64,000 nucleotides of DNA from Dehalococcoidia bacterium (GTDB lineage Bacteria; Chloroflexota; Dehalococcoidia; Lucifugimonadales; UBA3495): positions 2,985,240 through 3,049,239 of the forward strand of contig CBDDED010000003.1 in assembly GCA_965226825.1 (NCBI GenBank), written 5' to 3'. The notes under the pieces are model-generated. The model did no database searches. It was given only the letters and a program-made list of their open reading frames with translations, and was not told the DNA's origin. Numbering within the stretch: the first letter of the stretch is position 1; every line of letters begins with the position of its first letter. Below, in pieces: positions 14,924 to 44,620 of the stretch. Position numbers and translations under genes: made by a program.

Positions 14924-15916
14924 ATGGAATATCGGAGATTTGGACCTACAGACATAACGGTATCGGCCCTGGGGTTTGGTTGTTGGGAGATGGGAGGCAC
15001 CTACGGAGACGTTACAGAGCCGGAAGTGGCGGCTGCCGTCAACCGCGCTATAGACCTTGGCATCAACTGCTTCGACACGGCCCCGGCATACGGAAGAGGC
15101 GAGTCCGAGATTCTATTGGGCAGAGCTCTGGGACCCAGACGGAAGGACGTGGTGGTGATCACCAAGTGCGGGGTTGGCTACCCCGACCGTCCAAAGGGCA
15201 GGGATAGCCGGATGGTGTCTATCTTTGCCTCGGTCGAGCAGAGCCTGCGGAACCTGGGGACTGATTACGTGGACGCTTTGCTCATTCACTGGCCGGACGT
15301 CAGCACGCCTTTCGATGAAACCATGCATGCGCTGGACAGCCTGGTGCGCCAGGGAAAAGTCCGCGCCGTTGGGGTCTCCAATTTTAGCATCGACCAGATT
15401 GAAGAATGTGAAGCCGTGCGGAGTGTCGACGTCGTGCAGTACGGCCTCAACATGTTTGACCGGCGCATGGAGCAGGAGATATTTCCCCACTGCCAGCAGC
15501 GGGGGACAGGCGTAATGGTCTACGGCCCGCTGGCATTTGGCCTGCTGTCCGGCGCATTTACCGCGGAAACGACGTTCGGGAGCAACGATTGGCGATCCAC
15601 CGGCGGGCGTCCGGGGTGGAACGTTGGAGTGTTTGCCGAGGAGCACTTTCAGCGAAACTTACATGTCGTGGAGGAACTGAAACCCATCGCCGCCGCACGG
15701 GGAAAAAAGATGCCGCATCTTGCTTTGCGATGGGTCCTGTCAAATCCCGCGGTAAGCGTGGCATTGGTAGGCACTCGCACCGTTCAGGAAGTGGAAGACA
15801 ACGTCGCCGGGCTGGAGTGGGCCCTGTCGGGAGCGGAAATGGAGCAGATTGACGAGGTGTTCGCCCGCTACGGCGTGGACACGCACCCGGACATAGTCAT
15901 AGACCCGCCGGAATAG
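14924..15916 (+). CDS. aldo/keto reductase
   Basis: MEYRRFGPTDITVSALGFGCWEMGG..FDTAPAYGRGESE..DALLIHWPD.. Confidence 0.9.
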   Translation: MEYRRFGPTDITVSALGFGCWEMGGTYGDVTEPEVAAAVNRAIDLGINCFDTAPAYGRGESEILLGRALGPRRKDVVVITKCGVGYPDRPKGRDSRMVSIFASVEQSLRNLGTDYVDALLIHWPDVSTPFDETMHALDSLVRQGKVRAVGVSNFSIDQIEECEAVRSVDVVQYGLNMFDRRMEQEIFPHCQQRGTGVMVYGPLAFGLLSGAFTAETTFGSNDWRSTGGRPGWNVGVFAEEHFQRNLHVVEELKPIAAARGKKMPHLALRWVLSNPAVSVALVGTRTVQEVEDNVAGLEWALSGAEMEQIDEVFARYGVDTHPDIVIDPPE

Positions 15917-16872
15917 GGAACCGGCGACTTGACCGGGATATTCTCACCGATGCCACCACACAGCACTGCATCTCTCTGATAATGGTCACGCCCAGCCAAG
16001 GCGTAATGAAACGTCATTCTTCTGTCAATGTAGCCTTGATTGTACGCGGTGAGCTGAGGGAAGAGTATCCTTGCGCCCGATTGGATGGCGGAGGACGCAC
16101 ACTGTGTCGATGCGGAGTTGGATTTCCCACGTAAGGGGCCCCAAGAGTTGTTTAAATAGAAGATACTTCAATTGGTAGTACCACTGCAGTAGAAGTTCTG
16201 GTTGTCAGCGTCGGCCTTGTCCAACGGAGAGGCGATGCGGGAGAACTGATCCTGGGCTGGAGCAAGGGCTCTGGCGGCGCGACCCCTATTACAGCGCACG
16301 GAACTAGAGAAAGTGGGCAAAGGAGCACTGTATACAAAATTCGAGTTGGTGGGACTCAGTGAGCCTGCCAGGATCTGCACTCACCACTGGGATGGGACGG
16401 TAAATGTAGCGGCAACAGCAGTTGTAGTGAACAGACCTCTAACTCGCAGAGCGTGGAGACGGAACCAAGCGTATCCGGACAACCATGCTGGACTTGCAAT
16501 AGCGCAGTCTTGGAACTTACCGAGGAACAAAGGGTGGCGGGTTCCAAGCGTCGCGAGAGCTAAGAAACCTCTGAATAAGTTGTTGGATTGCCCCAGACCA
16601 CGGCTTAGCTAGGCACGATTCCAACAGAGGATCGCCGTCGTTCCCGACTTGTTCAGAGGTTTCCTAAACATGTTGGGAGAAGAGTTGCTGAGTCCGCCAG
16701 ATGTGCCGGCTGTGGCATTGACACAGCAGGTTTGCCAACCTTTACCACAGCCGCGCTACATGGTTGCAGATGTGCCATGAGGACGTTTACGCTCCCGTAG
16801 CCGCAGGCGGCGGCTGGAGGAAGGTTGGGGTAGCGGATGTTCTGGAGCGAGCGGGGGAGTGAGGTTGGGTAT

Positions 16873-17988
16873 TTATCCCTGCTCCTCGGCCGGCCCAATT
16901 TCTTCCAAGGTAAGTGTCTTGCCTTTACGTATGGCGTGTACGACAACTTCGCGATCCCAAAGAGGGCGGACTATGTCGTTCATCATTCCTGGCGGAACGA
17001 TGATCCGGCTTGACAAATTTCCGTCGATGACTTGGATAGTATTATTGTTCCCTCGCCGAGCATCAGCGAAGCGTAAAGTCCCCTTCATCTCCACCGGCTC
17101 GGCAGGGGTCGCACGCGAATCGGCGAGGTTTGGGGACGGGAGTTCCGCCGCCGGCGTCGTCAACTCTACGGAACGTTCACTTCCGCCGCGTGTTGCGGTA
17201 AATCCTACCTGACGAAATCGTTCGCCATCGGGTGCTATATTTCTTGCTAAGCCGTAGAAATTTCGCAGATATGCTTGGTCAGGGATAAGATCTTGGATTT
17301 CGTCAACGCGGGATTTGTTGACCAGTTCTATCAGGTCCATAAACTCGTCCACGATGACAGCAGAAGGAGACATCCCCGGCAAAGGAGGCTGAACAGGGCT
17401 GCCGAATTGCATCATTACAGCGAAGCTGCCGTTTCTGGGTGGGGAAAGCAGCAACCGATGATTTTCCCGTATTTCCTTGGGAGGCCCACCCCTCTCTCGA
17501 AACGGCAGACCTTGCTTCCGCTCGGCTGTGCGGTAAATCAGTTGCGCTGAGGTATTAACACGCCCATATACCGCACCTAACTCGGCGACTCCCTTGCCCA
17601 CTTCGGGGCCGGATAGGCTGAATTGGAGTTGGGAGTCCTGGAAAACGATGCCTTTTAGTGCAAGGTGTCGATGAAAGTAAATGTTCTCCAAGAGGTCCCG
17701 TAATTCTTCAGCGATCTCCGGGTCGGGGTCGCCAGCAAGGGCGGTAGCCGCTATCTGTTCGGCTTGGCGAAACCGGCGGCAGTCCAATGCAAGTGAACCG
17801 GCACTACGGTGTAGGACCGACCACAGTAGTCCATCAGAGGCATCCAGTTCGGCGATGGCGGCTAGTTCGGACTCCAATGCCTGCACAAAGTATCCCTGCG
17901 AACGATCCGCGTCGCCGCGAGCACGTTCCCGTATAGCGCGGTCAGTGAACTCCATAGCTTGGTCGTGCAAATCCCTAACGCTGCTCAT
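16873..17988 (-). CDS. hypothetical protein (371 aa), no recognisable domain
   Basis: Long intact ORF in a lower-GC island. Its start overlaps the stop of the upstream gene (ATGA at 17985-17988), suggesting an operon. Confidence 0.6.
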   Translation of the reverse strand: MSSVRDLHDQAMEFTDRAIRERARGDADRSQGYFVQALESELAAIAELDASDGLLWSVLHRSAGSLALDCRRFRQAEQIAATALAGDPDPEIAEELRDLLENIYFHRHLALKGIVFQDSQLQFSLSGPEVGKGVAELGAVYGRVNTSAQLIYRTAERKQGLPFRERGGPPKEIRENHRLLLSPPRNGSFAVMMQFGSPVQPPLPGMSPSAVIVDEFMDLIELVNKSRVDEIQDLIPDQAYLRNFYGLARNIAPDGERFRQVGFTATRGGSERSVELTTPAAELPSPNLADSRATPAEPVEMKGTLRFADARRGNNNTIQVIDGNLSSRIIVPPGMMNDIVRPLWDREVVVHAIRKGKTLTLEEIGPAEEQG

Positions 17989-18566
17989 TTCGCTCTAACC
18001 TCGGCAAGTGGCCTGCCAAACTCAACCACTACCACGTAAGCTGGCAACCCCCGGACGTCTGACCGATTCGTCTGGTTCATTTTACGTTTGACCCGTGCCC
18101 TTATCCTGGAGTCGTTGCCAAGTTGAATGCCGGATACCTCCATCCTTCCCCTGACGATCAGGCCATTGCCTTGAAGTGCCTCGCGCAATGCCATGGTTGT
18201 CGCCTGTTCAGCCTCAGATATGTTGTTCAGGTCGTTGTCGCCCAGCCAATAATCAATTCCGGTGGTCTTGCGGGAGCGGAGGATGACAGCGTATCCGATT
18301 TCTCCAATTGCTAATAGTGCTGCTATGCCGGCTGCGCCATCCTCAGCGGCTTCATCAGGGTCATTCCAAGTCCGTTTGGCTTGATCAGTGGCTGGAGGCC
18401 AAGCCAACGTATAGGTTTTTCTGAAGTCACCGCGGACTTCGAAATGAACCCCTTGCTGGTGCAGATGCGACTCCAAACATACAGCCCCCGCTTGCGCCAG
18501 ATCGTTTCCCTTTTCTCGTGTTATGCCCGGAATATCATCGGTATCCAGTTTGTTCAAGTCCAGCAT
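17985..18566 (-). CDS. hypothetical protein (193 aa) with a weak restriction-endonuclease-fold-like pattern
   Basis: Helix with acidic residues (EAAEDGAAGIAALLAIGEIGY), then ..TGIDYWLGD.., then ..GRMEVSGIQ.. in the order E..D..ExS. This is only a loose resemblance to PD-(D/E)xK. Confidence 0.55.
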   Translation of the reverse strand: MLDLNKLDTDDIPGITREKGNDLAQAGAVCLESHLHQQGVHFEVRGDFRKTYTLAWPPATDQAKRTWNDPDEAAEDGAAGIAALLAIGEIGYAVILRSRKTTGIDYWLGDNDLNNISEAEQATTMALREALQGNGLIVRGRMEVSGIQLGNDSRIRARVKRKMNQTNRSDVRGLPAYVVVVEFGRPLAEVRAK

Positions 18567-18745
18567 TTATACCTTAGAGCCGGGTCTGTTTGATCATGGG
18601 ATACGGTCATTAAGAGCTCACAATTTCCTGCCTCGGAGATAGTCGTCGGATTTTTTGACCGTCGTCTTTCTGACAACTTTCCGCGCCATGGCAGGCATTC
18701 CCACTCCCGGGGTGTATCTACGCGGAGTAGGTGGGGCATCGCTCT

Positions 18746-18934
18746 TTAAGAGGTGCTCTTTTCCCCAATGACTTTCCCTATTCGGCGCCTTTTATCTACC
18801 GATTCCTTTTCTTTGTAAATCCGCGCCAGTGCGGCCTCTAGAGACACGCCCAGCCGCCGGTTATTATCTCGAGCCATCACCAATCCCATTGCCCTTACTT
18901 CGTGTTCTTCCTTCCTGATATTCAATTGCTCCAA
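18746..18934 (-). CDS. small hypothetical protein (62 aa)
   Basis: ORF upstream of, and on the same strand as, the two-gene unit. Charged and helical in appearance. Coding status uncertain. Confidence 0.3.
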   Translation of the reverse strand: MEQLNIRKEEHEVRAMGLVMARDNNRRLGVSLEAALARIYKEKESVDKRRRIGKVIGEKSTS

Positions 18935-19037: not shown

Positions 19038-19817
19038 TCAGAACTCTGGCTGGCGCTTTTCCTTGAATGCCTGGATGCCTTCGGATGGGTGGGGAGAGGT
19101 GGCCACGTATTGGGCGAAAGCCATGATTTCGTTGGCGACTCCCTCCCGCAGCGGAAGGTCTTGCCCCCGACGGGCGATGGACTTGATCCAACCCAGCCCC
19201 GGCCGGCTCTTGGTCCGCAGGGGCGTCAGCAGCTTTTCCAATTCCTCATCCAGGTCTTCGGCCGGGGCGGCCCGCAACACCAATCCCCATTCTGCAGCCT
19301 CACGCCCGGAAAGCCAGCGGCCGGTGGTCAGCAGGTCCATGGCGCGTTGCATGCCGATCCTGCGGGGCAGTCTTTGGGTGGACCCTCCGCCCGGCATCAA
19401 CCCAAAATTCACGTGCTGGTCGCCGATCCGGGCGTCGTCCGCCGCCAGAGCCATGTCGCAGGCCATCATCAGCTCCAGTCCGCCGGCCAGGGCGAACCCG
19501 TGGACCACGGCGATAACCGGCACCGGTAAGGATTCCAACTGGAAAAGGCAGTCGTTGAATTGCTGAAGGTATGGCGTGAGCAGGTCCGGCTGGGCAAATG
19601 CCGTCTGGAAGTAGATAAGGTCGGCCCCAGCCGAAAAGGCGCGGCCTTCGCCGCGGATAACCAGGGCCTTGATGCTCTGGTCGTCTTGGACGTTGGCGAC
19701 GGCGCCCGATAGGTCTTCCAGCAAGGCGGGACTCAACGCGTTCATTGCATCGGGGCGGTTGAGGCCGATGGTGGCCACCGCGCCTTCTTTCTCCAACTTG
19801 ATGTTGGTATACTCCAC
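19038..19817 (-). CDS. enoyl-CoA hydratase/isomerase (crotonase family)
   Basis: MEYTNIKLEKEGAVATIGLNRPDAMNAL..RAFSAGADL.. Confidence 0.9.
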   Translation of the reverse strand: MEYTNIKLEKEGAVATIGLNRPDAMNALSPALLEDLSGAVANVQDDQSIKALVIRGEGRAFSAGADLIYFQTAFAQPDLLTPYLQQFNDCLFQLESLPVPVIAVVHGFALAGGLELMMACDMALAADDARIGDQHVNFGLMPGGGSTQRLPRRIGMQRAMDLLTTGRWLSGREAAEWGLVLRAAPAEDLDEELEKLLTPLRTKSRPGLGWIKSIARRGQDLPLREGVANEIMAFAQYVATSPHPSEGIQAFKEKRQPEF

Positions 19818-20114: not shown

Positions 20115-20393
20115 TTGTCAATAGAAAGAACTTATCAGTTTTTCATTAAGCTGGAGCGCCCAACCAAGGGACGCAAACCTGCAAACCCATCAATTACCAA
20201 CAAGGCCTACCACAACGACTACACCATCCAGGACCGAAAACGGCGTAGCGAACTTGGCAGATGCAGGAGTTGCCCCGAACCAGCCGTACCCGGACAGACT
20301 CGCTGCACCACTTGCGCAGAGAGGCACAACGAGTTAAGTCGTGCCTACCGAAAACGCCTCAAAGAACGAGAATCAGGGCAGGAAATTTCCTGA
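20115..20393 (+). CDS. small CxxC...CxxC (zinc-ribbon-like) protein, 92 aa
   Basis: ..GRCRSCPEPAVPGQTRCTTCAERHNELSRAYRKRL... It is the first ORF inside attL. The TTG start is uncertain. Confidence 0.4.
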   Translation: MSIERTYQFFIKLERPTKGRKPANPSITNKAYHNDYTIQDRKRRSELGRCRSCPEPAVPGQTRCTTCAERHNELSRAYRKRLKERESGQEIS

Positions 20394-20616
20394 TCAGATA
20401 CAACCCCAAATACCCCCAACATCAACTGCCCAAAGCTTCATGCGGTGATAATATACTCCCCGTATCTACCAATACGTCTACATCCTACCCCAGTACCCAA
20501 CGTTCAGCAGACATCCGAAGACACCAAATCGGGGAGACAATAACTGCGGGCACGTCCGAAATCTCCGACGACCACGCACTGACCAGCATGGAATTTAATT
20601 ACCAAAGGGATTAAAC

Positions 20617-21018
20617 ATGCCTCGAAAATCACCCGCGGGAATATCTACCAACGACCTGATCTTCAGTTCCTATATCGGAACGAACGACCAAGTCTTTCCT
20701 CACGTTCTCTCCCTTTATGTTGAACCAGGAAGCACCGTCGCAGACGTCACCTTCGGCAAAGGAGTATTTTGGAAAAAAGTACCAGTGGGAGTGTTCGACC
20801 TACGCCCTACGGACATCACCACCGGGACAGACTGCAAGAATTTACCATATGCCGACGGAGAGATTGATTGCGTTGTCTTTGATCCGCCATACATGCACAC
20901 CCCCGGAGGGACAGCTCATGTCGACCATCAAAACTACGACGGCGCCGGTGTCAACCATCATCCTCGCCAAATCCAGAGCCAACAGAAACTCGATCCAGGT
21001 CCCCCGGACCGCCAGTAA
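20617..21018 (+). pseudogene. N4/N6 DNA methyltransferase gene, truncated after the DPPY motif
   Basis: ..VADVTFGKGVFW.. (FxGxG-like) and ..DCVVFDPPYMH.. (DPPY). Protein-like sequence is lost about 20 codons later, so the 133-aa length is too short. Confidence 0.6.
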
Positions 21019-21480: not shown

Positions 21481-23134
21481 ATCCGGGCTCGAATTCGGGT
21501 AGATGAGGGGTTGGCGGCGGTCTGCAGGCGTTTTTGGGGGCGCCGATGGCGGCCTACAGTGGCTGCGGTGAGCGAGATGGCGGTGAGAGGGCACGGCAAG
21601 AGGCGCTCGCGGACCGGACTGGCGCGAGTTTGCGGGGAGGTTCAGTTTGCGGGGACGTTGGGACACTGGCGGACGGGCGCCGTCAGGCCGGGAGTGGAAT
21701 GGCTCGCAACCTGGCCAGGGCGCGACTGAACTGGGTTTCCCAGGGCCAACCCTTGGGAAGATGCAGGGTGAGGCGGCGTGCCGAGCGGGTGAGCCGTCCG
21801 GCCAGGGCGAAGACCCGCCGCCTGAGGGTCTTGGTGGTCACGATCTGCTCACCCAGGCCGATGCGGGCCGTCCAGCGGGCCAGGTTATGCGCCATCACCT
21901 GAACCGCCAGCCAGGCGCCGTTGGCGGCGAAGCACCCCGACGGCATGTGGTTCAGCCCGACGCCGTACTTGAGGTCGCGTATGGCGTTCTCGACCTCGGC
22001 GTGGCGGCGATGATCGGCCTCCAGTTCCAGCATCTCCCCGTCCCGGTCGGTGATGAAGCCGTGATAGCTGTATCTGGCGAAGAGGGCGAGCTGGGAACCG
22101 GGCGTCGGCTTCACCCGCCGGACAATGAGCCGCACCGGTGCGGCGTCCGGCTTGGTCTGGAACGGGGTGTAAGTAGTCTCGGCGACATCGGCGGCGCCGT
22201 CCATCCAGTAGGGAATGGGAGTCCAGTCCTGCTCTGGTATCGCCTCGATCAGGTCCCGCAGGCTTTTGTGCTGGCGGACGGTGATGGAGAAGCGGACATC
22301 CATTTCCCGGCAGGCGGAAACGACAGTGTGGGCGTAGAAGCCGCTGTCGGCCCGCGCCGTGAGTTGTCCGCTGGCTCCGCCGTAGCGCACCCGCCCCACC
22401 GTTTCACGCAGGAAGTGGGCGGCGCCGCGGGCGGTGTTGGCGCGGCCCTCGCGCAGCCGGGACATCAACACGTCGCCGGTGCCGGCGGCGATAGCCAGCA
22501 GTGGGTGATAGCCACGGGCGCCGGTATAGCCGTGGTGGCGTGCCCCCTCCTTGGCCATGCCGTAGGTTTCGCAGATGGTCGAATCCAGGTCGATGGTCAA
22601 AGGCGCATCGCCGGGTCCGGCCCCGGCCTGCCATGCCCGTGCCAGCAACTGGCGGCTCACGCGGTCGAGTTGACGGACGTGGCCCCAGCGAAAGCTGCGC
22701 AGGAAGGTCCCGAGGGTGGATGGCGCCTTGACCACGCAGCCGAGAACACCGACCGTCCCACCGGCACGCAGCGCATCGGCGTCGTCGATGCAGTCGCCGC
22801 CGGCCAGCGCGGAAGCGACCAGCGTCAGTAGCTTGTCCCCCGTGTTGGCCCGCCCCGGCGCGCCGCCGAGGTCGAGGTGACGGTCGACGAGTTCCCGCAG
22901 GCCCAGGCGCCGGGCGAGGGTGGCAGGAAGAAGCAGGCCGGCATTGGCCACCAGGCGGTGGTCGTCGAAGGTGATTTGGATCCGGTCGGGGTGGTTGCGT
23001 GGTAGCATCTAATGGGTGATCCTTTTCTGGGACTGTTTTTCTGTTCCAAAACCATTATCCCAGATTCAGAAGAGCACCTTTTTGCCCTTTCAGGAGGCCT
23101 CTCACACGCCCTTGTTCGGTGGATTGGGGCTTAT
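21481..23134 (-). mobile_element. IS1380-family IS, copy 1 (one terminus missing)
   Basis: Homology with copy 2 starts abruptly at 21481 (= 28470 of copy 2). The ~80 bp carrying the transposase-distal terminal IR are therefore absent. The other end, ..CGGTGGATTGGGGCTTA, is at 23117-23133. Confidence 0.75.
21683..23008 (-). CDS. IS1380-family DDE transposase (441 aa)
   Basis: MLPRNHPDRIQITFDDHRLVANAGLLLPATLARRLGL..GDCIDDADALR.. is characteristic of IS1380-type transposases. Intact ORF. Confidence 0.85.
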   Translation of the reverse strand: MLPRNHPDRIQITFDDHRLVANAGLLLPATLARRLGLRELVDRHLDLGGAPGRANTGDKLLTLVASALAGGDCIDDADALRAGGTVGVLGCVVKAPSTLGTFLRSFRWGHVRQLDRVSRQLLARAWQAGAGPGDAPLTIDLDSTICETYGMAKEGARHHGYTGARGYHPLLAIAAGTGDVLMSRLREGRANTARGAAHFLRETVGRVRYGGASGQLTARADSGFYAHTVVSACREMDVRFSITVRQHKSLRDLIEAIPEQDWTPIPYWMDGAADVAETTYTPFQTKPDAAPVRLIVRRVKPTPGSQLALFARYSYHGFITDRDGEMLELEADHRRHAEVENAIRDLKYGVGLNHMPSGCFAANGAWLAVQVMAHNLARWTARIGLGEQIVTTKTLRRRVFALAGRLTRSARRLTLHLPKGWPWETQFSRALARLRAIPLPA

Positions 23135-42125: not shown

Positions 42126-43316
42126 TTGAGAATCGCCCTGTGGCTAAGCGTGCTGGTTGCGCTGGCCCTAATCTTGGCCTGCGGAACCCCAACAGCTACT
42201 CCGACAGAGCTACCTCTTACCGAGACCCAGGAGCAGTCTCCGTCTACACCGGCAGAGCAGTCAGCGACCGGGACCCCGGAGCCGACCACAGGCACGTCGA
42301 CAATGCCACCGCTTACCGACATCCCAAAGCCAACGGCAGCTACGACGGCAGAGCGGCCAGCGACGTTGACCGTGGAGTCGCCTGCGGAAACGACGCCGGG
42401 ACCGCTGGCAACGGAGGTTTCAGAGCGGCCAGCGGCGACACCGGCGGAACAACCGGCGACCGATTCCACTTCGAACGATCCATCTGCGCTTCTCGCAATG
42501 CTGCCAGCCGGGGCCTCGCAGTTTACGTTTGTTAACCTCGAAGCCGCAATGGAGAGGCCTGCTTTTCGCGAGGTGGTTGAGTTTCAACTCAGCGACTTCG
42601 TTAACCTGGACGAGATACTGCTTGCCGAGGAGTTGCTTCGCTCCACGCACGTCAGCGCTATAGTTATGGGGGATTTTTACACCCGGTTCGAATGGGCCTG
42701 CATCTTAAGCGGCGATTTTGCTCTGGTTCAGGGCGCCCTGCGTTTGGCCGCCTCCGTTGATTCAGTGGGCGGTTTGTCTGCCAGCATGATTGATGCGCAC
42801 CGGGACGTGGAAATCTTCTCCCTCGTCAGAAAGACGCGTCGTTCGGAAATCCAAGTGTATCTGGCCATTCTGGACCGTAAGACGCTGGCAGCAAGCCAAG
42901 ACTTGGAACTGGTGAAGGAGATGATTGAGCGGCAGCGGGACGGCCTCAGCCTACCGCAGTCTCTTGCGGTAATGCTGGAGGAATGGGGACACCCCGATTA
43001 CCTGGATGCCTTGAGATTGGGAAGCGATCCTAACCAAACGTTGCCGGGCCCTCTGGGCGCCGCGAAGTACTACGCCTTCCACGCTACGCTGGGAGAAAAT
43101 GCGACCACTACGATGCGCGTTCTGCAACAGTTCAGCGACGATGACCAAGCCGCCGCTGCTGCCGCCTGGCTTGGTGAACAGGAGGATGCGTTCTGGCGGA
43201 GGATCGGTTACGGAAGCGGCGCCCAGATTGACCAGTGGAGAGCGAAAGGGCAGTCGGCCTACGGCGAGGCCAATGTTGCCGACGAGGATGTTCTTGGTCT
43301 GATTCAGCCCAACTAG
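42126..43316 (+). CDS. hypothetical lipoprotein with Thr/Pro/Glu-rich linker
   Basis: MRIALWLSVLVALALILACG lipobox signal, a ~110-aa low-complexity region and then a globular part. Confidence 0.65.
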   Translation: MRIALWLSVLVALALILACGTPTATPTELPLTETQEQSPSTPAEQSATGTPEPTTGTSTMPPLTDIPKPTAATTAERPATLTVESPAETTPGPLATEVSERPAATPAEQPATDSTSNDPSALLAMLPAGASQFTFVNLEAAMERPAFREVVEFQLSDFVNLDEILLAEELLRSTHVSAIVMGDFYTRFEWACILSGDFALVQGALRLAASVDSVGGLSASMIDAHRDVEIFSLVRKTRRSEIQVYLAILDRKTLAASQDLELVKEMIERQRDGLSLPQSLAVMLEEWGHPDYLDALRLGSDPNQTLPGPLGAAKYYAFHATLGENATTTMRVLQQFSDDDQAAAAAAWLGEQEDAFWRRIGYGSGAQIDQWRAKGQSAYGEANVADEDVLGLIQPN

Positions 43317-43497
43317 CCTGAGCAGGCCCGGCCGGCGCAGCCCGGTCGAGGGGGCTTGGGCTTTTCAGATCGGGCATCCCCCAAGTTTTACTTCGACCCT
43401 GGTTCCTTCCCTTTCGAGGCGCATGGGGGTGATTGCAGACTTTGTTTGTAGAACGGGCTCGAAGCAGGTAACAAGACGGCGGCGAGGGGGAACACCG

Positions 43498-43704
43498 TCA
43501 AGCGTTGTTTCCGTTGGCAGCGGGACTGGACTGCCTTTCCGACGGCGGGGGTTCGTCGAACGGACGGCCGTCTGCCCTGGCTTGATTGAACCTATTCAGC
43601 CAGGCTTCCCATTCTTGACGCTCCAGTTGACGTCCTCGCTGTTCGCCCCTTGCCTCCGCTCTTTTCCGAAGCCACTCCGCGAACCATTCCGAGAGCATGG
43701 ACAT
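43498..43704 (-). CDS. small protein, truncated paralog 1 of 44088..44492
   Basis: Shares ..LSEWFAEWLRKRAE..RGRQLERQEWEAWLNRFNQARADGRPFDEPPPSE.. with the other two copies. A stop codon sits 14 codons upstream of the ATG, so the TM region is missing. Confidence 0.45.
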   Translation of the reverse strand: MSMLSEWFAEWLRKRAEARGEQRGRQLERQEWEAWLNRFNQARADGRPFDEPPPSERQSSPAANGNNA

Positions 43705-43781
43705 AACCTCAACTACAACAGTTAGGAAAGTGGTTCTAAGGGGCGGCTATTGGCAGGTTGATATGGCGACGGGGAAAACGG

Positions 43782-44003
43782 TCAAGCAATGTGTGCGTAG
43801 GAAGCAGTTCTAGACTGCTTTTCCGACGGAGGGGGTTCATCGAACGGACGGCCGTCTGCCCTGGCTTGATTGAACCTATTCAGCCAGGCTTCCCATTCTT
43901 GACGCTCCAGTTGGCGCCCTCGCTCTTGCCCTCTAATCTCCTCTCCAATCTCCCTTAGCTCCCTTTTTTTCCGAAGCCACTCTGCGAACCATACCGAGAG
44001 CAT
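43782..44003 (-). CDS. small protein, truncated paralog 2
   Basis: Same conserved C-terminal module and the same upstream stop position as paralog 1. Confidence 0.45.
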   Translation of the reverse strand: MLSVWFAEWLRKKRELREIGEEIRGQERGRQLERQEWEAWLNRFNQARADGRPFDEPPPSEKQSRTASYAHIA

Positions 44004-44087
44004 GAAAATAACCTCTACTACAACGGTTAAGAGAGTGATTCCAAGAGGAGGCTATGCGCAGGTTGACAAGCCAACGGGGGTAACCGG

Positions 44088-44492
44088 TCAAGCGTTGTTT
44101 TCGTTGGCAGCGGGACTGGACTCCCTTTCCGACGGCGGGGGTTCGTCGAACGGCCGGCCGTCTGCCTGAGCCTGCTTAAACCTGTTCAGCCAGGCTTCCC
44201 ACTCGCGGCGTTCCAGTTGGCGTCCTCTTTTCTCCGCTCTTTTCTGAAGCCACTCTGAGAGCATGAAGATAACCTCTACGATAACTGTTGTGCTTACGAC
44301 TGATATGAGGACGAATGGGCTGGAATTACGCCCTATAGCGATGAAAGTCTCGAAAAAATTATCATGGGTACGGACGATGATTTCATACCACGACACGATT
44401 CCCGTATGCAATCCCACCTGGAGCGGGAAGAGGACCCAGAAAAATATGCGCCATGATGCAGGCACGATCCAAATGGATTCTCTGTCTTGCAA
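44088..44492 (-). CDS. small membrane protein (134 aa), full-length member of the tandem family
   Basis: Two hydrophobic segments (IFFWVLFPLQVGLHTGIV, FVLISVVSTTVIVEVIFML) followed by the conserved RGRQLERREWEAWLNRF..DGRPFDEPPP tail. Confidence 0.55.
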   Translation of the reverse strand: MQDRESIWIVPASWRIFFWVLFPLQVGLHTGIVSWYEIIVRTHDNFFETFIAIGRNSSPFVLISVVSTTVIVEVIFMLSEWLQKRAEKRGRQLERREWEAWLNRFKQAQADGRPFDEPPPSERESSPAANENNA

Positions 44493-44620
44493 GCAATCGC
44501 TCCGTTGCTATTTCCGTTGTTGGTGCATTTGTGGGCCATGATGGTAGCACATAGGTGTCACACTCTTGACGTGAGAGTGTTTGCGGTGCGATACACTCCG
44601 GAAAAGACATGAAATGAAGG

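Follow-up and report, generated by a model that had tools for sequence, protein, structure and literature searches.

The window analysed here is a 64,000-nucleotide (nt) stretch of a Dehalococcoidia bacterium genome (contig CBDDED010000003.1), and our subject is a pair of overlapping genes on its minus strand, which we call A (193 amino acids, aa) and B (371 aa). An earlier reading made from the letters of the window (the sequence-only reading) had picked the pair out as an overlapping two-gene unit lying between an aldo/keto reductase gene and a crotonase gene. Both statements hold: the two open reading frames (ORFs) share an ATGA stop/start overlap that can be read in the sequence, and the flanking genes are present as described (aldo/keto reductase, 14924-15916, plus strand; crotonase, 19038-19817, minus strand). 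The parts of the pair, including the domains and motifs discussed below, are as follows.

17985-18566, minus strand: gene A, an ORF of 193 aa and the first gene of the module, encoding a predicted divergent restriction-endonuclease-like enzyme
16873-17988, minus strand: gene B, an ORF of 371 aa, encoding a predicted three-domain partner (BN, middle domain and OB fold)
17985-17988, minus strand: ATGA overlap of the A stop and B start codons, read directly as GCG AAA TGA over ATG AGC AGC
18572-18575, minus strand: AAGG, probably the ribosome-binding site of A, 5 nt ahead of its start codon, read directly
18246-18260, minus strand: GIDYW, A residues 103-107, with D105 at the start of predicted core strand 2 ('PD' position)
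18129-18143, minus strand: MEVSG, A residues 142-146, with E143-x-S145 in predicted core strand 3 ('(D/E)xK' position, Ser for Lys)
17653-17988, minus strand: BN domain, B residues 1-112, a predicted acidic five-helix TPR-like bundle with helices at 2-111
17119-17652, minus strand: predicted middle alpha/beta domain, B residues 113-290, with invariant R143, R153, Y240, F244 and P253-D254-G255
16891-17106, minus strand: predicted OB fold of nucleic-acid-binding type (Foldseek), B residues 295-366, with strands at 297-366

Read from the sequence, the ATGA overlap shows A and B to be arranged for translational coupling, that is, for being co-translated from one mRNA. The AGGTATAA-ATG ahead of A is common to the closest relatives (loci L001 and L081), and the remaining upstream region is not conserved.

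The pair is of foreign composition. The GC content of 16873-18934 is 53.9%, compared with 60.4% for the window (0.534 for A and 0.552 for B), which puts this segment in the lowest 0.8% of segments of the same size across the 64 kb. At third codon positions GC (GC3) is 0.55 in A and B, whereas in the flanking genes it is 0.70-0.80. The low-GC island described by the sequence-only reading is real as a drop, but its figure of 47-52% was too low; a GC of about 0.51 is reached only in the intergenic part, at 18.4-19.0 kb.

Conservation of the pair and its variants

Neither A nor B matched Pfam, NCBIfam, PADLOC or PHROGs at E <= 0.01, so the statement of the sequence-only reading that these proteins could not be assigned to a family stands after searches of four profile libraries. 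In particular, neither protein matches the known toxin and antitoxin families in Pfam, NCBIfam and PADLOC. All public copies of A and B are named 'hypothetical' or 'uncharacterized'. At 90% identity the homologues form 361 clusters for A, which are unannotated, and 972 for B, none of them with a Pfam domain. No account of the pair turned up in the searchable literature library, which was queried both by concept and by accession number.

Scanning one genome per species (185,579 species representatives), we found B in at least 238 species. Its carriers belong to the Dehalococcoidia and other Chloroflexota, Latescibacterota, Binatia, Nitrospirota, Nitrospinota, Acidobacteriota, Alphaproteobacteria, Planctomycetota, Desulfobacterota and Spirochaetia. 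One carrier is the cultured Herpetosiphon aurantiacus DSM 785, where the operon lies within 1594879-1611997 of CP000875.1; the spread of the pair over about 12 phyla is patchy. B proteins from Latescibacterota are 57-58% identical to that of the window, while those of many Dehalococcoidia are only 39-49% identical to it. Being closer than many Dehalococcoidia copies, the Latescibacterota proteins point to horizontal transfer.

For comparison of gene order we kept 80 loci from the B scan. An A homologue lies directly upstream of B on the same strand in all 80, and the 4-nt overlap is found in 67 of them. Mean pairwise identity is 0.48 for A as against 0.44-0.51 for the parts of B, and the pairwise distances of A and of the B parts correlate with r = 0.69-0.79, as tightly as those of B's own domains do with each other. 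Comparison of these loci shows A and B to be inherited, to judge by their letters, as a unit across phyla. A conserved third gene was considered and rejected: the largest cluster of neighbours reaches 8 of the 80, and the genes on the flanks may have either orientation. Also rejected was the single apparent A-B fusion, in locus L069, taken up as possible Rosetta-stone evidence, which is a deletion removing A's catalytic strand.

A second survey, of metagenomes and seeded with A, gave 78 evaluable loci, and in 77 of them A is immediately followed by a protein containing BN. This partner consists of BN only in 40 loci (115-137 aa), is a full B in 25, is cut by the contig end in 10, and is BN plus OB in one and BN plus another sequence in one. 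The sole A locus without BN (L172, 672-2773) has a 459-aa insertion sequence (IS) transposase on the opposite strand right after A, and this insertion replaces the BN gene and clips the last five or so codons of A. An intact A without BN was found in no locus. The partner likewise lies downstream of A in nine of nine evaluable provirus contigs, and on the Anabaena cylindrica plasmid pANACY.01 (80261-81183) A is followed by a 127-aa protein that is BN alone. Because BN lies downstream of A in 77 of the 78 surveyed loci, A probably depends on BN. The sequence-only reading had proposed a check on whether homologues of the pair occur together, as they do in both surveys; that reading had also named ordinary metabolic assignments, or a lack of co-localisation, as counter-evidence, and neither was seen.

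Only BN is constant in A's partner, and the rest of B is swappable. A BN profile finds 1,596 representatives (clusters at 50% identity) at E <= 1e-10. Half of the best 150 have the full B architecture, 28 are BN alone, some are BN plus OB and about 30 carry other C-termini, among them Dam, N6_N4 methylase, RecX, HTH_3, HU and a LexA-type winged helix. Ahead of the BN-Dam fusion, and overlapping it by 4 nt, lies a genuine A gene (hhalign 100%). PDB sequence searches with the alternative BN partners found nothing.

Several single loci illustrate this variation further. On a Hymenobacter radiodurans plasmid (L088, 5926-7361) the partner of A is BN (hhalign 98%, residues 1-107) fused to a bacterial sugar transferase domain, Bac_transf, a combination seen once that may be a fusion accident. 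In a 6.3-Mb genome (L198, 7556-8952) an A that is 67% identical to the window's lies between two BN-only paralogues of 126 and 122 aa, with a MULE transposase and a CopG antitoxin gene in the surroundings; in a sister strain (L197, 7771-8952) the upstream BN copy is shortened to 78 aa. On a JGI contig (3300013138; L090, 3643-6499) BN forms the N-terminus of RecX in a recA-recX-alaS operon, which suggests an A-independent role of BN linked to RecA or DNA metabolism. An overlapping 210-aa gene follows BN-RecX there; considered as a hidden A, it proved unrelated to A. Locus L089 was considered as the same chromosomal site with another variant and was rejected, its crotonases being about 40-50% identical and its downstream genes unrelated.

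Decay of the module strikes A first. Leptolyngbya has BN next to an A pseudogene with a frameshift, and five loci (L020, L047, L069, L080 and L087) combine an intact B or BN with an A that is frameshifted or truncated. A harmful A would be expected to leave such a pattern.

Predicted structures of A and B

The AlphaFold model of A (110-sequence alignment) has a predicted local distance difference test score (pLDDT) of 97 and a predicted template-modelling (TM) score of 0.93. In this model an N-terminal subdomain (residues 1-66) precedes a core of alpha-beta-beta-(insert)-beta-alpha-beta order, made up of helix 70-90, strands 93-97 and 106-110, a helical insert at 118-131 that is dispensable in some members, strand 137-147, helix 152-172, and strands 176-182 and 187-192. 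Across 81 orthologues, which reach down to about 35% identity, the residues scored as invariant are E75, D105, Y106, W107, E143, S145, R158, K162, E182, C30 and H36 (D105 and E143 each in 81/81; S145, and likewise Y106 and W107, in 78/81), together with W56, which lies with C30 and H36 in the N-terminal subdomain. The invariant residues are kept in the most distant cyanobacterial and Bacteroidota members.

These features likely make A a divergent restriction-endonuclease-like (PD-(D/E)xK) enzyme. The modelled core appears to share with that superfamily, as represented by Mrr_cat, the DREN domain of SPARDA, phage YqaJ and Exo VIII-type enzymes and Cas4/DUF83, the order helix, three strands, helix, strand, and to have acidic residues at the canonical places: a Glu in the first helix, an Asp at the start of strand 2 and a Glu in strand 3. 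A differs from the superfamily in having Ser in place of the motif Lys, in giving no significant sequence or structure match, in its extra N-terminal subdomain and its helical insert between strands 2 and 3, and in the BN protein obligatorily encoded downstream. PD-(D/E)xK variants without the Lys are known. In A, K162 and R158, both invariant and both in the helix after strand 3, could substitute for it.

Foldseek searches with A against PDB and BFVD returned weak matches only (best E = 0.027, TM score <= 0.41), and a PDB profile search with A gave no match. The named ones among these weak matches are mostly of restriction-endonuclease-like fold, examples being tRNA-splicing endonuclease subunits, the SPARDA nuclease, a phage 'PD-(D/E)XK nuclease', an 'Endonuclease', YqaJ, Exo VIII-like proteins and DUF83. 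As the matches are weak, we infer the nuclease assignment from motif and topology. The sequence-only reading had hinted at a restriction-endonuclease fold for the 193-aa protein. The element order and the positions of the acidic motifs are consistent with this, and the fold matches are weak; its GIDYW and MEVSG segments are indeed present at 103-107 and 142-146, among the most conserved positions of the family, and the lysine that it could not make out is replaced by Ser145.

The AlphaFold model of B has a pLDDT of 83.7. The helical N-terminal third that had been read from the letters is seen in this model as BN, which is modelled as a TPR-like helical repeat; its profile matches designed consensus TPR proteins at E = 1.2e-8, and Pfam TPR models score it below threshold. 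BN is acidic, with an isoelectric point (pI) of 4.86 and a net charge of -8. The middle domain, whose alpha/beta elements take up residues 115-276 of the model, is rich in invariant Arg, Asp and Gly. It has no PDB sequence match and is lacking in the BN-only and BN-plus-OB variants.

The C-terminus of B is, in the model, an OB fold superposable on known OB domains. Foldseek relates it with probability 1.00 to the OB domains of the ExoVII large subunit, PolD, Lys- and Asp-tRNA synthetases, RPA and RecO (best E among these named matches 1.4e-3; root-mean-square deviation, rmsd, 2.4-4.5 A over 71-91 columns). In the top 50 PDB matches to this region, 49 are chains containing OB-fold domains (probability 1.00, rmsd 2.4-6.5 A), the sole other match being a chain of a DHS-eIF5A complex (8qzx_E, probability 0.80); the E-values run from 1e-3 to 3e-2, each marginal by itself. 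Residues 295-366 superpose, again with probability 1.00, on tRNA_anti-type OB domains such as those of ExoVII, RPA, PolD and class IIb aminoacyl-tRNA synthetases. The predicted domain of B differs from these in having no sequence-level match, in being mildly acidic (pI 5.8) and in lying C-terminal to unassigned domains.

Genomic context and possible function

The module is found on plasmids and proviruses, and together with its patchy distribution this shows it to be horizontally mobile. Sequenced phage genomes gave no match to A or B; in IMG/VR, A with B or BN downstream of it is present on 11 provirus contigs, where the neighbours include Cro/CI repressors, a serine integrase, terminase, Rad52-type annealing proteins, SSB, a DnaC/IstB-like loader and Dam. 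On one such contig (L095, 3061-7631; UViG 3300028916_000081) a D12 methylase, a SacI-like restriction endonuclease, AbiV (HEPN), A and B lie on one strand.

We tallied 143 immediate and 133 second neighbours in 75 genomes (276 ORFs). The commonest Pfam families are N6_Mtase (6), Methylase_S (4), ResIII (4 and 5) and SNF2 (4), followed by Eco57I (3), Schlafen AlbA_2 (3), AAA_21 (2 and 3) and HSDR_N_2 (3); no metabolic family exceeds 2. PADLOC recognises type I and type II methylases and DrmD- and HmaA-like helicases among the neighbours, the surroundings repeatedly contain toxin-antitoxin genes (PIN, HicB and CopG), transposases and integrases, and three loci (L095, L085 and L190) are clear defence islands. 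This enrichment in restriction-modification and abortive infection (Abi) genes is suggestive. The question raised by the sequence-only reading, whether homologues sit in defence islands, has a divided answer: defence families are the commonest neighbours and plasmids and proviruses carry the pair, but many loci, including the window, are metabolic. In Aphanizomenon and Dolichospermum (L189-L196, 4788-7384) a 520-545-aa N6_N4 methylase-Mrr_cat-NA-iREase1 gene lies head-to-head with a short A plus BN; the methylase-Mrr gene is in fragments in five of the eight strains and A plus BN is intact.

What is familiar in the A-B module is its general logic; new are its protein families, a predicted active site with Ser in place of Lys, and BN as an adaptor for swappable heads. 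Like toxin-first type II toxin-antitoxin systems (of the higBA, hicAB and mqsRA type) and the sensor-antitoxin CapRel(SJ46), A-B is a small coupled bicistronic operon of a putative enzyme and an acidic, neutraliser-like partner. The partner is likewise modularly fused to DNA-binding heads, plasmids, prophages and defence islands are shared settings, and the enzyme gene decays first. Unlike them, A-B stands outside the known toxin and antitoxin families, its partner is a predicted folded TPR-like domain as conserved as the enzyme, and the window's B carries a conserved extension of 260 aa. Two-gene nuclease-based anti-phage systems (Hachiman, with its PD-(D/E)xK nuclease HamA and helicase HamB, and nuclease effectors of the Gabija, Shedu and Lamassu types) resemble the pair in combining a nuclease-fold effector, predicted here, with a nucleic-acid-binding partner, in being mobile and near restriction-modification or Abi genes, and in having a swappable sensing part; A-B differs in having no NTPase or helicase and no PADLOC match, and in its OB-fold/TPR-like partner.

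Judging function from association and fold, we tentatively favour a reading whose chances we put just short of even, namely that the pair is a mobile, self-contained nuclease module of two proteins, of the toxin-antitoxin or abortive-defence kind. A would be a metal-dependent endonuclease with a divergent restriction-endonuclease-like core. Metal would be bound by E75, D105, E143 and E182, and the positive charge normally given by the canonical Lys, whose place Ser145 occupies, would come from K162 or R158 of the following helix. BN, the acidic domain of B, would bind A and hold it in check or regulate it. In the long form of B found in the window, the middle domain and the OB fold may bind nucleic acid, most probably single-stranded DNA (ssDNA) or the replication or recombination intermediates of an invading element. 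Such binding would couple A activity to the invader, in that A would be released, activated or brought to its target, and the outcome would be degradation of foreign or cellular nucleic acid, leading to exclusion of a phage or plasmid or to post-segregational killing.

A number of observations weigh against this nuclease-module reading. The PADLOC check proposed by the sequence-only reading matched no known or candidate defence family: A, B and two small ORFs upstream of A gave no match at E <= 1 in PADLOC-DB v2 including candidate systems. In Foldseek, Pfam and hhalign comparisons A matched no nuclease significantly, whether by structure or by sequence, hhalign giving a probability below 1% for a sequence link to Mrr_cat or SacI-like enzymes, and the canonical Lys of the PD-(D/E)xK motif is absent. 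B is as conserved as A and larger, unlike typical labile antitoxins. No operator upstream of A is conserved, the upstream regions of relatives not aligning. The asymmetry in decay is confounded by the selection of loci and possible assembly errors, and the defence-gene enrichment is semi-quantitative, with no matched control; housekeeping genes make up most of the neighbours, metabolic genes flank the pair in the window, and a trp-operon locus (L082-84) is also otherwise housekeeping. Finally, BN occurs without A, in the RecX fusion behind recA, in an orphan BN plus OB and in a BN-N6_N4 methylase in a phage-like region, and it presumably therefore has some A-independent function.

A broader proposal, possible but held with less confidence, is that A plus BN is the core of unrecognised, widespread modular conflict systems. 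In these the nuclease would be a new variant of the restriction-endonuclease fold and BN an acidic TPR-like adaptor, always encoded with it and recruiting interchangeable heads (OB, HU, winged-helix, HTH and Dam or N4-N6 methylase), and the form in the window would be an OB-sensing anti-phage or anti-plasmid nuclease. Where BN proteins stand alone in phage-like regions, they could act as decoys and neutralise A. With about 1,600 BN clusters, and the pair in at least 238 species, about 12 phyla, plasmids and proviruses, this is not rare noise. If A is a BN-controlled nuclease, it would represent a new toxin-antitoxin or defence family with a very confidently predicted but unmatched fold, and the BN adaptor would show how effectors and DNA-recognition heads are shuffled. 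The BN-RecX fusion hints in addition at an unexplored link to RecA biology. Cultured carriers exist (Herpetosiphon aurantiacus DSM 785, Anabaena cylindrica PCC 7122 and Nostocales bloom-formers), and the hypothesis is therefore directly testable.

The pair might instead be a plain type II toxin-antitoxin addiction module with no dedicated anti-phage role, A being the nuclease toxin, BN its direct antitoxin and the extra B domains (OB in the window, HTH, winged helix or HU in other loci) DNA-binding autoregulators of the operon, all persisting on plasmids, prophages and chromosomal islands by post-segregational killing. Its minimal form, a bicistronic operon of two small proteins with overlapping genes (an enzyme of about 180 aa and an acidic helical protein of about 125 aa), fits this well, as do the fusions of BN to antitoxin-type DNA-binding domains (HTH_3, LexA-type winged helix and HU), carriage on plasmids and proviruses, decay of A beside an intact partner and the duplicated BN copies. 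Yet the toxin-first order and the folded, highly conserved partner are atypical, the 260-aa middle-plus-OB extension has many more invariant residues than an operator-binding head needs, no conserved palindromic operator was found upstream of A among relatives, and the Dam and Bac_transf fusions are unfit for autoregulation. We consider this explanation unlikely; its mechanism is that of the nuclease-module reading, from which it differs in biological role only. Another explanation starts from the BN-RecX fusion in the recA-recX-alaS operon, the resemblance of B's OB fold to those of ExoVII, RPA and RecO, the Rad52-type annealing proteins, SSB, DnaC/IstB-like loader and Dam methylase around the provirus pairs, and RecJ, DinB_2 and DNA ligase among the neighbours. 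On this account the pair would be an accessory repair or recombination factor from temperate phage recombination modules, with A a structure-specific endonuclease (resolvase- or flap-like) and B an ssDNA-binding, RecA- or SSB-associated targeting subunit. That is quite improbable for a pair that is patchy and rare (at least 238 of 185,579 species), with no conserved synteny or linkage to repair genes, foreign in composition and repeatedly pseudogenised in A, whose restriction-modification and Abi neighbours are commoner than repair genes and whose short BN-only partner has no DNA-binding domain.

Methylases bring in a further alternative, a restriction-like system in which A is the endonuclease and BN tethers it to a head that reads or modifies DNA, making a restriction-modification pair with BN-Dam or an adjacent methylase and a methylase-independent, type IV-like system with the OB/middle head of the window. 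The BN-Dam gene overlapping A by 4 nt, the BN-N6_N4 methylase fusion, the methylase-Mrr gene head-to-head with A plus BN in cyanobacteria, the rank of N6_Mtase as the commonest neighbour family and a methylase fragment 2 kb from the window's pair all speak for it. But the commonest forms have no methylase (there is no cognate methyltransferase in the window's pair, and BN-Dam is confined to rare variants), A plus BN outlast the decaying methylase-Mrr gene beside them, BN-N6_N4 methylase is found without A, and a DNA-recognition module would be missing from an unprotected nuclease whose partner is BN alone, which leaves this account very unlikely. We give slightly less credence still to A being an RNA-targeting toxin, a metal-independent endoribonuclease akin to tRNA-splicing endonuclease that would use the chemistry of Y106, H36 and K162 on tRNA presented by B's OB fold. 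These three residues are nearly invariant, no family is commoner among the weak PDB matches of A than tRNA-splicing endonuclease subunits (top match 7zrz at probability 0.44; also 1a79, 2cv8 and 8hmy), which share A's size and two-domain layout, and class IIb synthetase anticodon-binding OB domains dominate B's match list. However, none of the splicing-endonuclease matches is significant (full-length rmsd 11-14 A), A goes unmatched by the Pfam tRNA_int_endo models, and H36 sits in the N-terminal subdomain of A, whereas the EndA/Sen triad belongs to the C-terminal domain. A's invariant residues are mostly acidic (E75, D105, E143 and E182), which is typical of metal-dependent DNases, the other fusion partners of BN are DNA-binding or DNA-modifying rather than RNA-related, and the same type of OB fold binds ssDNA too, as in ExoVII, RPA and PolD.

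Other features of the locus

Two small ORFs lie on the upstream side of A.

18746-18934, minus strand: 62-aa ORF with a TTG start, ORF only
18554-18739: second small ORF, 61 aa, ORF only

The sequence-only reading had counted the 62-aa ORF as a possible component. The ORF exists, but it is conserved in none of the 80 related loci and therefore stands outside the unit; both small ORFs, considered as third components, were rejected on the same count of 0/80.

Between 15.8 and 21.7 kb we found no Rfam families or tRNAs, promoter and terminator counts at chance level, and no unusual repeats, only short two-copy matches. Downstream of B lie 956 bp (15917-16872; 55% GC) with no ORF, Rfam match or tRNA. 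This stretch is 96% identical in the relative L081 and holds a 20-nt inverted repeat (16561-16580 / 16647-16666) whose arms are 66 nt apart. A decayed gene was considered here and rejected, the stretch matching same-species contigs only.

On the other side, 2-4 kb from the pair, lie a truncated 133-aa ORF (20617-21018, plus strand) with DNA-methyltransferase motifs I and IV (TFGKG ... FDPPY) and, beyond it, an IS (21683-23008, minus strand) with a DDE_Tnp_1_4 transposase and 69% GC. The methylase-motif ORF and a 92-aa ORF (together 20115-21018, plus strand) have a GC3 of about 0.54, like A and B. The whole block at 20.1-23.0 kb is missing from the 99%-identical relative L081, and we therefore take it to be a strain-specific insertion beside the island. 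A second low-GC patch at 43300-44500, at about 53.4% the lowest in the window, contains only small membrane and coiled-coil ORFs.

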